Of a DNA stretch of 42,114 nt, positions 2,161 through 31,925 are shown one piece after another. Both the position numbers and the translations under genes were made by a program. The notes below the pieces were generated by a model. It saw nothing but the letters and a program-made list of their open reading frames with translations, made no database searches and was not told where the DNA came from. The stretch comes from a virus (taxonomy: Duplodnaviria; Heunggongvirae; Uroviricota; Caudoviricetes): the IMG/VR virus record IMGVR_UViG_2585427728_000007, one strand, 5' to 3'. Numbering within the stretch: position 1 is the stretch's first letter; the number at the start of each line of letters is the position of its first letter.

Positions 2161-2877
2161 TCAGTACCCTATTGCAAGATAACGACCGTAACACAAATCA
2201 CTGTCACTACTGCGCGTCACTGCAGCACCCACTGAGTCAGCACGTAAGCTCATCGCCGTCGCAGTGATAGTGGTTCGGCTTGTTGGGGCAATTGCATATA
2301 CTGTCGGTCGTGCGGTTTGTATCACATTATCATGTGTTGCATATGCCTGCATAACCATAGTAGGAAAAGCAATCGGCAGATTAATATCCACAGTGCCGCC
2401 TGATCTCAGAGATGTCATTACTCCCCATTGCATAATAAGCGTCTTACGCGTACCGCCAATCATCATCGGAAATATGGCATATCCGGTTTCGCCCATACTA
2501 CCTGTCGCAACACCTGTAGCACTGATATCTCCTAAACCAAGGTTTTCGAGAGCCGTTTTCACCGTGCCATCCGATTTGATATCGCCAAACGGATTCTTGC
2601 GGCTCAGGTATTCAACAGCAAACCCCGATCCCAGCAATTCAACAAAACCGGGCAGATCACCATTATCAAGCACATCCCGTTGCGTTTTGTCACTTACAAA
2701 CTGGGCCAGAGCTGCAGCAATAAAGCTGGCCTGCCGAATAACCTTATTGACTTGCGCACTGGATGCTTTCCCTGCTGTAAATCCGGATAAAAGCGCAGGC
2801 AACGCTTCCCATTCCTCCTGCGACATAACATTGGCATTCCGATCAGTTGCAAACGCTTTAAAGTCATTTTTCGCCAT
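2161..2877 (-). CDS. Tail fiber protein
   Basis: Start taken at ATG 2877 (MAKNDFKAFATDRNANVMSQEEWEALPALLSGF...), which overlaps the stop of the upstream baseplate gene as TGATG; conserved tail-fiber N-terminal region followed by a variable C-terminal part; followed by a Tfa gene. Confidence 0.7.
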   Translation of the reverse strand: MAKNDFKAFATDRNANVMSQEEWEALPALLSGFTAGKASSAQVNKVIRQASFIAAALAQFVSDKTQRDVLDNGDLPGFVELLGSGFAVEYLSRKNPFGDIKSDGTVKTALENLGLGDISATGVATGSMGETGYAIFPMMIGGTRKTLIMQWGVMTSLRSGGTVDINLPIAFPTMVMQAYATHDNVIQTARPTVYAIAPTSRTTITATAMSLRADSVGAAVTRSSDSDLCYGRYLAIGY

Positions 2878-3557
2878 CAGAGTAATACTCCCCATGCCCC
2901 TACATCAAAACCACTGATGAATTCGTTATCCATATCAAAACCAAAAAATTTTGAACCTTCCGATGGAGTTTCCACCGAAGGTGTTTCAACGCTGCCAGCC
3001 CATACACCAGCAGCTTTAACGGTGAGATAACCCTGTTTGATAGCGGCTATCAGTTCGAGTGACACATCAGAAATATCAGTCTCAGGGAATACCCAGACCG
3101 ATATCGTCATGTCCTGGTTATCGACGATCTGCATCTTCAGTCCAGAGCCTGCGGTAGCAGCGTCAAGGATGGGAGGCAGAGAGTCGTTCCGACCATCCCA
3201 GTTGTTGATAGCGATTTTCGCTTTCAGAATGATGCGGTACGTCTCATCACTCAGCGTCGTATAGCCAGAATCAGGATCATATGGCCCTTGCCAGATGCCC
3301 TGGTCATATCCGAGCCCGTCAGTGTCCCAGCTGAAATAAACGCCGCTAATTGGCTGGCTGACTATACGACTACGCCCAATCCACAGGCCGAGGATATCGA
3401 GTTGCACGCCAACCGCCGTATCGATATCGAAGGCTGTTACAAGCCCTGACATAGTGCTGGACACATCAATCAGCGGGCGGGTGCTCAGATCTATATGGTC
3501 AAAAAAGAGTGGCTTGGTAGCATGGTAGTTAGTGATCAGTTCGGTGTATTTGCTCAT
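2877..3557 (-). CDS. Baseplate protein (Mu gp48 / P2 gpI-like position)
   Basis: Start taken at internal ATG 3557 (MSKYTELITNYH...), which forms an ATGA overlap with the stop of the J-like gene; position between baseplate J-like gene and tail fiber. Confidence 0.55.
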   Translation of the reverse strand: MSKYTELITNYHATKPLFFDHIDLSTRPLIDVSSTMSGLVTAFDIDTAVGVQLDILGLWIGRSRIVSQPISGVYFSWDTDGLGYDQGIWQGPYDPDSGYTTLSDETYRIILKAKIAINNWDGRNDSLPPILDAATAGSGLKMQIVDNQDMTISVWVFPETDISDVSLELIAAIKQGYLTVKAAGVWAGSVETPSVETPSEGSKFFGFDMDNEFISGFDVGAWGVLL

Positions 3558-28760: not shown

Positions 28761-30212
28761 TCAGAATCCTCCTTTCTTCTTGGATTGCGGTTCCTCGCGT
28801 TCACGGCGGCGCATTTCAGCAGACTGTTGGTCTGTGTCATAAATAGCGCCATTTGCCTGAATGCAATACACCGTGCCGGTATTGCCATGACGATTGAGAC
28901 GAAGGATTAGTTCGGTTTCACCAGGCGGAACACTGTCATCAAAAGCACCTTCACGATGGATCCCCACCCAATAATCGCAATCCTGTTCAATCTGCCCTGT
29001 ATCGCGCGAGTCACTTGGTAATGGGCGTTTATTGGTTCGGCTTTCCAGTGCGCGGTTAAGCTGCGTCAGAAGCACAACAACGCAATCAAGCTCTTTGGCA
29101 AGGTTCTTCAGTCCTTTGGTGATCATGCCGTAAGCAAGGTCGTTACGATCGGCTTTCTCAGCGGTCATTAGTGTCAGGTAATCGACCAGAATCATGCCAA
29201 CACATCCTTTTTCTCGCTTGATTCGACGGCTTTCGCTGACGATTTGAGCCAGAGATAATCCCGGCGTGTCGTCGATGTAAAGCAGGTCGATTTCACTCAA
29301 GCGATTGGCTGTTTCGATCGCCCTGTTGAAGTCACCATCGTAATCACCCTGATAGCCGTCATCGGCGTCATTTGTCGCCGGAAGGTAAAAAATATTCGGG
29401 TTAACACCAGACTTCTGCCCTACCAGTTTTTCCAGTATCTGATCACCTGGCATTTCAAGGCTGAACATCAGAGCGGGCTTTTTCTCATGCACTGCGCAGT
29501 TGATTGCCATCTGGCTGTATAGCGTCGTTTTCCCCATCTTAGGGCGAGCGCCAATGACAAACAGAGAGCCTTTCACCAGACCTTTCGGTGACAGCATCCT
29601 GTCCAGCGATGGGATCCCTGTGCTCATTCCCCGTTGTTCGCCTGATGGGTCAAATCGCTTCTCAAGGTCGCTAACCCAGTCTTCCATGACCTCACCAAAT
29701 GAACGAAGGCCGCGACGCGATCCGGTTTTTGCATGGTCTGTCAGTTGCGTGAAAATCGACTGAATAGCTTCGTACTTCTGCGTTGCAGTCATTCCGTTGC
29801 GGGAATAGAGCAATTCCGTCGCTTCAGTCATGCGGTTGATGGCGTAGCGTTCCATTGCGGTTTCACGAACCTGCATTGCATAGGCAACGATGTTTGCTGC
29901 GCTTGGCGTGTTCTTTGCGATCTCAGCGATATAAGCAAAACCGCCAACAGACACCGTTAACGATTTACGCTCCAGTTCATCGAAAAGCGTCAGGCCATCT
30001 ACTGGCTTTTGCTCACGGTGCATTCTGGTTATTTCTTCGAAAAGGATTTTGTGTGGTCGGCTGTAAAATGAATCAGGCTTCAGCATCGCCAGAACTTTCT
30101 GGACGCGCTCACTGCTGTCATCATCCAGAAGCAATCCACCAATCACCGCCTGCTCTGCCTCGATGCTATGGGGCGGCGCATAAAAATTATCGGTCATCGT
30201 GTTCACCCTCAC
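28761..30212 (-). CDS. Replicative DNA helicase (DnaB family)
   Basis: 483 aa; N-terminal DnaB-like region and Walker A GARPKMGKTTL in a RecA-like C-terminal domain; follows the O-like initiator gene. Confidence 0.9.
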   Translation of the reverse strand: MRVNTMTDNFYAPPHSIEAEQAVIGGLLLDDDSSERVQKVLAMLKPDSFYSRPHKILFEEITRMHREQKPVDGLTLFDELERKSLTVSVGGFAYIAEIAKNTPSAANIVAYAMQVRETAMERYAINRMTEATELLYSRNGMTATQKYEAIQSIFTQLTDHAKTGSRRGLRSFGEVMEDWVSDLEKRFDPSGEQRGMSTGIPSLDRMLSPKGLVKGSLFVIGARPKMGKTTLYSQMAINCAVHEKKPALMFSLEMPGDQILEKLVGQKSGVNPNIFYLPATNDADDGYQGDYDGDFNRAIETANRLSEIDLLYIDDTPGLSLAQIVSESRRIKREKGCVGMILVDYLTLMTAEKADRNDLAYGMITKGLKNLAKELDCVVVLLTQLNRALESRTNKRPLPSDSRDTGQIEQDCDYWVGIHREGAFDDSVPPGETELILRLNRHGNTGTVYCIQANGAIYDTDQQSAEMRRREREEPQSKKKGGF

Positions 30213-31077
30213 GAACTTTCAGGTAGGTATTATCGTTAAGCAGGAAATCAAATCCCTTTTTGTGCCAGACGGTTCCGCGTTGATGGTTTGGGCGCTCTTC
30301 GAACATCCATCGGCAATTTTCGCCTACGTAGCTCAAATAATTTCTCCAGTCCTGCATCGTGAAACCATGCCCATCAAGCTGGCGGGTTATCACTCCGGCT
30401 TTGCGCCAGAACGTTCGGATCTGGTTTTTACGCTTGTCATTCAGTGCGCGGATTCTTGGCGCTTCAGGAAGGATTTCGTGGTAAGCATCGACAACATCCT
30501 GACAGCTAACGGAAGGTTTTTTCTTGTCAGACTTTTTGTCTGCTGTGGCACTCTCTAATACGTCAGTATTAGAGATATTATTTATATTATTGTTTATGGA
30601 CAACCGTTGGACAACCGTTGGACAATCTCCGCTGAGAGCCGCGCCATTACTGGTGTTTGCGTTGGACAACCGTTGGACAACCGTTGGACAATTTTTTGCC
30701 TGAAAATCGTCATATTTAACGATTGTAAACAGGCTAAATTTCTTCCCCATCGAGCAAATATTAAGCATCCCTTTCGACTCAAAAGTCCGTAATAAGCTCC
30801 GAACTTTGTTGTCGGGGATGAATGTTTCTCTGACCAGCGACGGGCGTCCAGTTATCATCTGACCGCGATCAACAGTTATCGGCCCGATATCCGTATTGAC
30901 GACAGTAGATTCGTGATTAGCCTTGAGGATTAAGTGAAGCCAAAGATGTACTGCCTGAGAGTCCTTATAGAGCCTGCTGTCCATAAACTGGCGGTGTATA
31001 GAGACATACCCCATACTGGATGCCTCCTGATGTTGTACAGGGTTATGCCTGTAATCAGCTAACTTAACGACGCCCAT
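30187..31077 (-). CDS. Replication initiator (lambda O-like), with ori iterons inside the gene
   Basis: 296 aa; position after cII and before the helicase; coding sequence contains six 11 bp iterons that encode the repeated peptide CPTVVQRLSN; the true start may be the internal Met (MGYVSIHRQF...). Confidence 0.7.
   Translation of the reverse strand: MGVVKLADYRHNPVQHQEASSMGYVSIHRQFMDSRLYKDSQAVHLWLHLILKANHESTVVNTDIGPITVDRGQMITGRPSLVRETFIPDNKVRSLLRTFESKGMLNICSMGKKFSLFTIVKYDDFQAKNCPTVVQRLSNANTSNGAALSGDCPTVVQRLSINNNINNISNTDVLESATADKKSDKKKPSVSCQDVVDAYHEILPEAPRIRALNDKRKNQIRTFWRKAGVITRQLDGHGFTMQDWRNYLSYVGENCRWMFEERPNHQRGTVWHKKGFDFLLNDNTYLKVREGEHDDR
30597..30695. repeat. Replication origin iterons: 6 copies of TGGACAACCGT-like 11 bp unit in two clusters
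   Basis: Copies begin at 30597, 30608, 30619 and 30663, 30674, 30685; the clusters are 44 bp (4 x 11) apart, so all copies are in phase; flanked on the low-coordinate side by an AT-rich stretch (30560-30596). Confidence 0.8.
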
Positions 31078-31225
31078 GTTTCACTCCTGCTTTGGCTAGT
31101 CTGTAAACACCAACAAGGCGCTCTGCGAACGCCCTGTTATTTGCTGCGGCTACCACTAATCCCTCAGGTGAATCAGGGTGTCGAATCTCTTCTTTTTCCT
31201 GGTATTTCTTACGACGTTTTGTCAT
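31064..31225 (-). CDS. Hypothetical small basic protein between cII and O (not in ORF track)
   Basis: Manual translation MTKRRKKYQEKEEIRHPDSPEGLVVAAANNRAFAERLVGVYRLAKAGVKHGRR (53 aa); AGGAG six nt upstream of the ATG; stop overlaps the O start. Confidence 0.35.
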   Translation of the reverse strand: MTKRRKKYQEKEEIRHPDSPEGLVVAAANNRAFAERLVGVYRLAKAGVKHGRR

Positions 31226-31257
31226 AATTACTCCTGTGGATTGATCCAGTAATTACC

Positions 31258-31554
31258 TCAGAATTGCATATCAATTTGCTCAGAATCCTCGGTGGCAGCC
31301 GGGGATTTTTTCTTTGCGATTCCATCCAATGCATACTTAAAAGCCCTGCTAATCGGACTGATGTCTGATGCCATTCCGAAAGCACACAAGACCGAAGCAA
31401 TAAATCTCCAGTCCGTTCTGCTTATCTTCGATTCATGACAGCCAATCATCTTTGCCAGACCGCGCTGGGTAAGCGTTGACAGGTTGATGAGTAAATCTGT
31501 TTCTGCGCGATCAACGTCGCGCTGTGATAGTTTGCTGTAACTTGTTTGTTCCAT
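31258..31554 (-). CDS. cII: CII-like transcriptional activator
   Basis: 98 aa; HTH region LTQRGLAKMIGCHESKISR and C-terminus KKKSPAATEDSEQIDMQF resemble lambda CII (C-terminus ...KKRPAATERSEQIQMEF as recalled). Confidence 0.8.
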   Translation of the reverse strand: MEQTSYSKLSQRDVDRAETDLLINLSTLTQRGLAKMIGCHESKISRTDWRFIASVLCAFGMASDISPISRAFKYALDGIAKKKSPAATEDSEQIDMQF

Positions 31555-31638
31555 TTCTTATGATTCCAATAGTGAATATTTAGCTGAAAGGTATGCGTGG
31601 AAACGCATATGACCTTAGTTGGTCAGATATCTTGGGGC

Positions 31639-31684
31639 TCGCTTTGTCAGCGACGTAGGACGAATGTCCATTGTGAAAAGAGCG
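31639..31684 (-). promoter_or_regulatory. nutR candidate: boxA (CGCTCTTTT) and boxB hairpin (UCGCU-GACAA-AGCGA)
   Basis: Minus-strand boxA-like CGCTCTTTT at 31684..31676, eight nt after the cro stop; boxB-like hairpin at 31653..31639 with a 5 bp stem and GACAA loop. The 22 nt boxA-boxB spacer is longer than in lambda. Confidence 0.55.
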
Positions 31685-31691
31685 GTGTTAC

Positions 31692-31925
31692 TTATGCTGC
31701 TGATGCTCTACGCGATACGAACACCAGGTTTTCCTTTTTCACGGGTTTATAGGCCGTGAAATTACGAGTAGCTTCTTCGATTGCATTCGCTTTATCAGGG
31801 GAAGCTCTTCGAAATCCATATGCAATCTGGTCAAGATAGCCAACTGAAGTTTTCGCTAATGCGGCGAGTCGCTTCCATTCCTCACTAGAAGCCTCTTTTC
31901 GCCAGCGTAGTAGTTCATTACTCAT
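31692..31925 (-). CDS. cro: Cro-like repressor (HTH protein divergent from cI)
   Basis: 77 aa; HTH segment KTSVGYLDQIAYGFRRASPDKANAIEEA; divergently transcribed from cI across the operator region; GGAGG Shine-Dalgarno. Confidence 0.65.
   Translation of the reverse strand: MSNELLRWRKEASSEEWKRLAALAKTSVGYLDQIAYGFRRASPDKANAIEEATRNFTAYKPVKKENLVFVSRRASAA

Follow-up and report, generated by a model that had tools for sequence, protein, structure and literature searches.

Inside the gene for a replication initiator (30187..31077, minus strand; 296 aa), the viral DNA analysed here, a 42,114-nt stretch from a member of the Caudoviricetes (IMG/VR record IMGVR_UViG_2585427728_000007; 'the window' refers to this whole stretch), carries a set of short, regularly spaced repeats. 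This raises the question of whether the repeats matter to the encoded protein or instead act, as an original prediction made from the letters alone had proposed, as a replication origin of the lambda type. Our analysis makes it very probable, judging from sequence and its conservation, that the site is a theta-replication origin of a lambdoid temperate phage, located in the linker-coding part of its own initiator gene and composed of putative initiator-bound iterons, a candidate unwinding element and a structural palindrome. Comparisons with other phages support the lambda-type reading of the repeats, and place the element by sequence within a family that includes the origins of Sf6, L and HK620; the element was already known, having been annotated or described in these three phages, and was re-found here.

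On the minus (gene) strand, the repeat unit consists of an 8-bp core together with a 3-bp linker, with five of the six cores reading TGTCCAAC and one reading TGTCCATA. The first cluster (30660..30692, minus strand) contains the three 11-bp units ATTGTCCAACG GTTGTCCAACG GTTGTCCAACG, which have TGTCCAAC cores at 30683-90, 30672-79 and 30661-68. A spacer of 33 bp (30627..30659, minus strand), fixed in length and variable in sequence, separates it from the second cluster (30594..30626, minus strand), which contains the units ATTGTCCAACG GTTGTCCAACG GTTGTCCATAA; the last of these carries the variant core TGTCCATA, as it does in every relative of the TGTCCAAC-core clade. The similarity of the two clusters extends to an exact 30-nt repeat, TGGACAACCGTTGGACAACCGTTGGACAAT, whose two copies (30597-30626 and 30663-30692) are offset by 66 bp, or 6 x 11. 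Tandem Repeats Finder, a check that had been suggested alongside the original prediction, gave a period of 11 with 100% matches in both arrays and, together with the exact repeat, bears out the six phased 11-bp repeats in two clusters of three at the positions where they had been placed. Other details of that description were only partly right. In the register first chosen for the unit, four copies are exact while the third of each cluster matches at only 8 of 11 bases (TGGACAAT...); the spacer had been given as 44 bp, which is the start-to-start distance rather than the 33-bp gap; and of the two copies of the encoded peptide CPTVVQRLSN, one is exact (aa 130-139) while the other reads CPTVVQRLSI (aa 152-161).

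The core is concentrated at this one site. Exact TGTCCAAC occurs five times in the 42-kb window, always within a single 85-nt stretch, against an expectation of 1.17, and none of 100 shuffled sequences reached five copies. Elsewhere in the window the full 11-mer shows no excess at up to two mismatches, and a search for extra iteron copies, such as might serve autoregulation, found none there. Two other readings of the repeats were set aside. Promoter-like TGGACA-18-GACAAT pairs inside the iterons (4 sites, 1.9 expected) were judged not to be meaningful. A 19-bp dyad iteron of the lambda kind was suggested by the sequence TTGGACAACCGTTGGACAA, which is near-palindromic around CAACnGTTG in the window; this was dismissed, as the dyad is lost in L/ST160, ENT47670 and other clades while the 8-bp direct core is kept (the CAACGGTTG dyad of the window is replaced by CAACGGATG in L/ST160 and is likewise absent from other clades).

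The gene that houses the array matches PHROG 345 ('replication initiation O-like', E 5.8e-85), and downstream of it, overlapping its end, lies a gene for a DnaB-type replicative helicase (28761..30212, minus strand; Pfam DnaB E 8.5e-31 and DnaB_C E 3.1e-60; PHROG 19). The claim that the repeats lie within an initiator gene was therefore well founded. The protein can be divided into an N-terminal DNA-binding domain that is predicted to be winged-helix-like (~aa 22-126), an origin-bearing linker (aa 127-176) and a C-terminal domain (~aa 190-296). Alongside the array, the original prediction had pointed to an AT-rich stretch at 30560-30596; this region is indeed only 18.9% GC, although it turns out to comprise two elements, a 21-nt tract and part of an inverted repeat, and the 10-bp palindrome at 30552-30575 had been missed. 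The AT-rich tract itself (30576..30596; TAAACAATAATATAAATAATA on the gene strand) has a GC content of 4.8%. Nearest-neighbour energies rank it as the least stable duplex in the window at lengths of 20, 30 and 40 bp (z ~4), making it a candidate DNA-unwinding element. In the direction of the gene, the order is thus iterons, AT-rich tract, palindrome.

To see how far this arrangement is shared, we compared 29 diverse Enterobacterales prophage loci (34-96% protein identity) together with reference phages, 35 genes in all. Almost all of them have the same layout, in which two sets of three units stand 33 bp apart and are followed by about 21 nt of A+T and then by a perfect palindrome of 9-10 bp with a 4-nt spacer. 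The two clusters are offset by exactly 66 bp in 33 of the 35, even though the sequence of the spacer varies, and the layout of the DNA persists in other clades whose encoded peptides are quite different (VPADYQQITT, VPTECQQSAN and NPKEIQGKSN). The number of clusters can also change, since the proteins occur in lengths of 274, 296 and 318 aa, in steps of exactly 22 aa (66 bp), corresponding to one, two and three clusters; a nine-unit array was seen in the DNA of one locus (L114, 2501-3457), with protein P0001 being of the 318-aa form and P0036 and P0041 of the 274-aa form. One single-cluster form lies in a Shigella flexneri prophage (L118, CP000266) that has an IS4 element between cro and cII and so may be defective. 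During this survey we also noted enterobacterial-type initiators in assemblies labelled as unrelated phyla (L008, Chryseobacterium sp. 18061; L033, a 501-bp contig of Catenulispora; L035, a 386-bp contig of Xanthomonas pisi), for which contamination or mislabelling is the likely explanation.

It is at this point that one has to ask whether the array, while being a real binding site for the initiator, might serve mainly for control, through autoregulation, titration or handcuffing, or the exclusion of related phages, with opening and helicase loading taking place elsewhere. There is precedent for this, as plasmid and lambda iterons also have inhibitory or titrating roles and lambda replication is silenced by cloned ITN3-4 iterons in combination with oop (PMC3349717); in addition, the case for unwinding at the AT tract is one made from sequence. 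Yet the array directly adjoins the least stable duplex of the window, one that does not vary in close relatives, the succession of iterons, AT tract and palindrome copies that of ori-lambda, the layout is kept across all relatives examined, and the window holds no other copy of the core. A site devoted mainly to control is, in our judgement, improbable, and an origin proper remains the better account of the array.

The palindrome, which directly follows the AT tract in the window (30552..30575), reads TCTCTAATAC-TGAC-GTATTAGAGA, with perfectly complementary 10-bp arms (30552-61 / 30566-75) and a 4-nt spacer. For single-stranded DNA of either strand, the calculated hairpin energy is -7.5 kcal/mol (z -6.4 and -7.0). 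The arms take at least 10 different sequences among the relatives, and when 19 distinct versions were compared, 97.4% of cells were paired, as against 30-48% in controls in which the partner column was slid; all 10 pairs have changed on both sides, with the nine inner pairs always Watson-Crick and never G-U. The peptides encoded across these arm variants include ISNTDVLES, NSLTNVRES, ISSTDVEES and NSISKDIEC. As changes in the arms alter the encoded peptide, it is complementarity that is being kept. The spacer is constant at 4 nt, with the form T(G/A)A(C/A) (TGAC, TAAC or TAAA; window 30562-30565). We note that lambda-type origins have spacers of TGGC or TGAC (in lambda, locus L116 575-578), which could point to a constraint on the loop that the two have in common.

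A palindrome at this position is, by sequence comparison, a general feature of lambdoid origins. The lambda palindrome after the AT-rich region was noted around 1980. It has 12-nt arms and a 4-nt spacer (GTCAGAGAATTC-TGGC-GAATCCTCTGAC, directly after the AT-rich region), and PhiR30_1, SEN34 and HK225 keep that sequence, while P22 and HK97 have a G+C-rich palindrome (CCCCCTTA...TAAAGGGGG) at the same place. These data raise the possibility, which we put forward tentatively and with rather more hesitation than the assignment of the origin itself, that the palindrome is selected as a DNA structure, forming a hairpin or cruciform when the origin melts and acting in helicase loading or priming. If so, a long-noted and functionally unexplained palindrome of lambdoid origins would gain a testable structural role, and the idea might also be relevant to defence systems in which hairpins at phage origins are sensed; papers on Lamassu and DdmABC, which treat origin or hairpin sensing, deal with lambda iterons and with T7-like or vibriophage hairpins, not with the Sf6-type origin element.

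The same palindrome could in principle function as an RNA element, either as an intrinsic terminator for antisense (plus strand) transcription or as a hairpin in the mRNA. A terminator scan does flag it on the plus strand, where the stem is followed by TATTATTTAT, and in the annotation of phage L a terminator is marked at the corresponding position of that strand. However, the one terminator-like site found compares with 1.3 expected by chance, the stem is AT-rich with G-C at just 3 of 10 pairs, and no Rfam match was found in 30000-31700. The consistent avoidance of G-U in the nine inner pairs of the 19 versions is what would be expected of a DNA palindrome that is self-complementary on both strands, and lambda-type and P22-type origins likewise carry a palindrome just after the AT-rich region. 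Taken together, these points make an RNA element a poor explanation, and one that we rate slightly below a control site for the array; a palindrome that is part of the origin DNA fits better.

If the initiator binds the iterons, then changes in the core would be expected to go hand in hand with changes in the protein, and this is the pattern that we observed. Across the ~35 relatives, the cores take the forms TGTCCAAC, TGTCCAGC, TGTCCGGA, TGCCAAC, T(G/T)ACCAGC, AATCCAA, TTACCAA and TTCCCAGA. The helix predicted to be the recognition helix changes alongside, reading ...PDNKV[RK]SLL where the core is TGTCCAAC, ...ADRVKSLL with TGTCCAGC, ...DNKVKSLL with AATCCAA, ...PDRVKYLL with TGCCAAC, ...PDRVQYLL with T(G/T)ACCAGC, ...SDRVQYLL with TTACCAA, and ...PNRIQYLL with TTCCCAGA. 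More specifically, the base that precedes the invariant CC(A/G) tracks helix residues 93/94, with [RK]S accompanying T, KY accompanying G, and QY accompanying A or C. In sequence terms, this covariation is the pattern expected of cognate pairs of protein and binding site, although, since the sequences are related, the match between core and helix is a correlation and not proof. A comparison of the helix region (initiator aa 85-101; window ~30775-30825) with the cores in loci L001-L034 distinguishes at least eight specificity classes in Enterobacterales prophages.

Selection on the DNA could be seen from the period of the array and in two separate data sets. Since 11 cannot be divided by 3, the core is translated in each of the three frames along the array; a period that is out of frame in this way cannot come from a peptide repeat. 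In eight diverged genes of the TGTCCAAC clade, third-codon-position identity reaches 0.95 in the first cluster and 0.93 in the second, while the values for the flanking N- and C-domains are 0.57 and 0.58; the positions that do vary are exactly the 3-bp linkers, where the residue changes are non-conservative (V/D/N, R/D). The second set comprised 73 near-identical viral contigs with a two-cluster origin, representing 30 distinct origin sequences. Here, the cores had 0.10 variants per nucleotide and the linkers 0.75. In the spacer, the value was 0.44, counted over the 36 nt that run from the cores of one cluster to those of the other (30625-30660), which puts it among the origin's most polymorphic parts. 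In the AT tract, counted here as the 19 nt that separate the final core from the palindrome (30576-30594), the value was 0, and the palindrome had 0.04. The DNA itself is under selection in the cores, the AT tract and the palindrome. The idea that the repeats are merely a peptide linker duplicated by slippage (CPTVVQRLS twice, between two protein domains, with no function as DNA) can draw on their position in a low-complexity, probably disordered linker (pLDDT 25-41, aa 120-190) and on a 66-bp unit that varies from one to three copies, as slippage products do, but it is hardly tenable, and the weakest of the alternatives, given a period that is out of frame, cores kept at synonymous sites (0.93-0.95 vs 0.57) while residues at linker positions change non-conservatively, a DNA layout that other clades retain with quite different peptides, and a core that co-varies with the helix-turn-helix (HTH) helix.

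Natural exchanges between phages provide a further view of how the initiator and its sites are divided into modules. HK022, HK620, VT2-Sakai, Stx2-II and others share 97-98% identity with the window only from gene nt 481 onwards (30597 downwards); upstream of that point they carry their own N-domain and iterons, while the AT tract, palindrome, C-domain and helicase are held in common. The onset of identity at gene nt 481 places the exchange point where the iterons give way to the AT tract. A second junction is found in a Dryocola sp. BD626 prophage (L028, 2441-4083), in which an N-domain of the window's family, together with TGTCCAAC iterons, is joined, immediately beyond the palindrome, to a C-terminal domain of lambda O (residues 162-299 of lambda O, 62% identity, E 3e-61), the fusion gene then being followed by a homologue of lambda P (PF06992, E 4.9e-65). 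As this chimera puts a window-type N-domain/iteron module in the place of lambda's own, it constitutes strong, if indirect, evidence that the two modules do the same job, namely origin recognition.

We can now suggest how an origin of this kind might work. The N-terminal winged-helix domain of the initiator would bind the six 11-bp direct-repeat iterons (core TGTCCAAC plus 3-bp linker), which, being arranged as two clusters of three with starts 66 bp apart, all face roughly the same side of the helix. The complex of protein and DNA formed in this way would strain the adjacent 21-bp AT tract, leading it to melt, upon which the palindrome might extrude as a hairpin or cruciform. The initiator C-terminal domain could then bring in the phage's own DnaB-type helicase, encoded just downstream, and transcription of the early rightward operon would pass through the site, as it does at ori-lambda. 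Within this scheme we infer protein binding and its stoichiometry, the wrapping of the DNA, the point of unwinding, the recruitment of helicase and the role of the palindrome.

Several observations weigh against such an origin, or against parts of the scheme. The N-domain has no confident structural model: AlphaFold2 gave a pLDDT below 50 for residues 1-188 from a shallow alignment of 10 sequences; homologues of the protein number 1605. Given this poor model, the winged-helix assignment rests on weak profile (HMM) matches and predicted secondary structure. The matches in question are to winged-helix-turn-helix (wHTH) and Phage_rep_org_N models, along with PHROG matches to 'DnaD-like helicase loader'; Pfam Phage_rep_org_N matched 3 of 14 members of the N-domain family, with a best E of 3e-4, below the curated thresholds. 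A Foldseek comparison of the initiator model with PDB returned nothing with E <0.5, and sequence and profile searches of PDB with the initiator were negative. Homology between the initiator and lambda O was not detected either (hhalign probability 0.2%; Pfam and NCBIfam searches), with no match to TIGR01610 or PF04492, where lambda O itself scores 5.4e-39. At the level of the DNA, the AT tract is short, 21 bp as against 38 bp in lambda. The natural one- and three-cluster variants imply either that six sites are not strictly required or that the one-cluster forms are defective. In two relatives (L024 and L025, genes at 2492-3418; a Leclercia metagenome-assembled genome (MAG) and Silvania hatchlandensis), the TTACCAA units are spaced by 12 bp, so that 11-bp phasing is not universal; at this spacing the units are in frame and encode NYQP/NYQE/DYQA. 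Finally, a search of the literature found no experimental data on binding, unwinding or origin activity for this type of origin. All told, we continue to regard a replication origin as the very probable identity of the site.

By its genomic context, the initiator gene belongs to a lambdoid temperate phage and to its early right operon. Upstream of it in the same operon (31064..31925, with matches to phrog_35, phrog_191 and phrog_1331) lie a cro-like gene (31692-31925, minus strand), cII (31258-31554, minus strand; Phage_CII E 5.6e-32) and a 53-aa open reading frame (ORF; 31064-31225, minus strand; phrog_1331) that is a homologue of HK97 gp53 and P22 orf48, with a gene for a cI-type repressor on the opposite strand. 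This arrangement implies that transcription from the early promoter runs through the origin; in Sf6, the homologous region is annotated with PR, nutR and tR1. The conserved 53-aa ORF sits between cII and the initiator and overlaps the start of the latter by 14 nt. We also considered GC skew as a marker of the origin; its cumulative minimum falls at ~30-32 kb, but this does not discriminate, since the direction of transcription also switches there, at the immunity region. The closest match to the structural genes (window 1-25000) is Citrobacter phage Omnitron, at 95% identity across 70% of the query, and there is a more distant resemblance to SEN34-like phages. By contrast, the replication module is of the Sf6/HK106/mEp234 type, a combination typical of mosaic lambdoid genomes.

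For annotation, these results fix the origin, initiator and helicase of the phage with good confidence, and they indicate that a first-stage reading of raw sequence can recover a real cis-acting element. They hold little new biology, since annotations or descriptions of the same repeats already exist for Sf6, HK620 and phage L. What may prove useful are the by-products: a table of at least eight iteron specificities against variants of the recognition helix, the fixed 66-bp spacing, the range of one to three clusters, the exchange junction between iterons and AT tract, the natural lambda O/P chimera and the covarying palindrome. These amount to predictions for swaps of binding specificity and for the function of the origin palindrome.

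How, then, does this origin compare with those already known? The putative origins of Sf6 gene 43, L/ST64T gene 18, HK106, mEp234 and HK75 are the same element as that of the window and do not differ in kind. The initiator gene is 99% identical to Sf6 gene 43 and its counterparts in the E. coli phages HK106, mEp234 and HK75, in IME10 and in others (99.2% to Sf6 over the whole gene), and 84% identical to those of the Salmonella phages L, ST64T and ST160. All have six 11-bp TGTCCAACG(G/A) repeats arranged 3+3, the same AT tract and palindrome, and the same DnaB-type helicase partner; in the window, the initiator gene stands directly upstream of the helicase gene in the early right operon. The difference is that the window carries this module in a phage whose structural genes are Omnitron/SEN34-like rather than P22-like. 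The rep_origin feature of the Sf6 record AF547987 (locus 3411-3506), labelled 'putative; repeat region reminiscent of the phage lambda origin; similar to phage HK620', maps to window 30597-30692, and the records of HK620 and phage L have rep_origin features at the same place in their genes. For phage L, the same six 11-bp repeats have been described (PMC8022706). Six repeats of TGTCCAACGG/A in two groups of three are present in the window; of the 11 positions, the consensus given in PMC8022706 differs at one. According to the genetics of Hilliker 1981 (cited in PMC8022706), phage L accepts substitution of its replication region only if the entire region is replaced. Along with the covariation of core and recognition helix and the selection on cores, AT tract and palindrome, these genetics lend indirect support to a function as an initiator-dependent theta origin.

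HK620, HK022 and VT2-Sakai share the arrangement of 3 units, 33 bp and 3 units with an 11-bp period, and their palindrome, C-domain and helicase are 97-98% identical to those of the window. With the core T(G/T)ACCAGC and the helix PDRVQYLL, they differ in representing another specificity class of the same family. P22 gene 18 and HK97 O stand further off. They resemble the window's initiator gene in genome position, in having a DnaB-type helicase (gp12) as partner and in an AT-rich region followed by a palindrome, but their N-domain is lambda-O-like (42-43% identity to lambda O residues 19-152; P22 gp18, 43%), their repeats number about four and are ~20 bp long (PMC8022706), and their palindrome is G+C-rich. 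Beyond the lambdoid phages, iteron plasmids combine direct repeats with an AT-rich unwinding element, and the replisome organiser G38P of Bacillus phage SPP1 binds repeats inside its own gene. The likeness to SPP1 oriL (gene 38, G38P) is limited to the weak Phage_rep_org_N and DnaD-like PHROG matches and is a lead only.

The comparison with ori-lambda itself is the most instructive. In both, the origin lies inside the initiator gene, with iterons, an AT-rich region and a palindrome with a 4-nt spacer following one another in the direction of transcription, and this ori-lambda-type order within the initiator gene is what we found in the window. In both, too, N-domain and iterons appear to form a module for specificity and the C-domain one for helicase recruitment (PMC3349717; PMC7466680). 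Lambda differs in having four iterons of 18-19 bp, imperfect inverted repeats that are each bound by a dimer of O (PMC7466680), whereas the window has six 11-bp direct repeats without a conserved internal dyad; and the partner in lambda is P, the loader of host DnaB, in place of a DnaB-type helicase of the phage's own. The original prediction of a lambda-type arrangement thus captured the architecture, with its iterons inside the initiator gene and AT-rich tract alongside, to which the palindrome can be added, but does not extend to membership of the lambda sequence family. Given an initiator that shows no homology to lambda O and iterons that are 11-bp direct repeats, this origin probably works like ori-lambda while belonging, by sequence, with those of Sf6, L and HK620.

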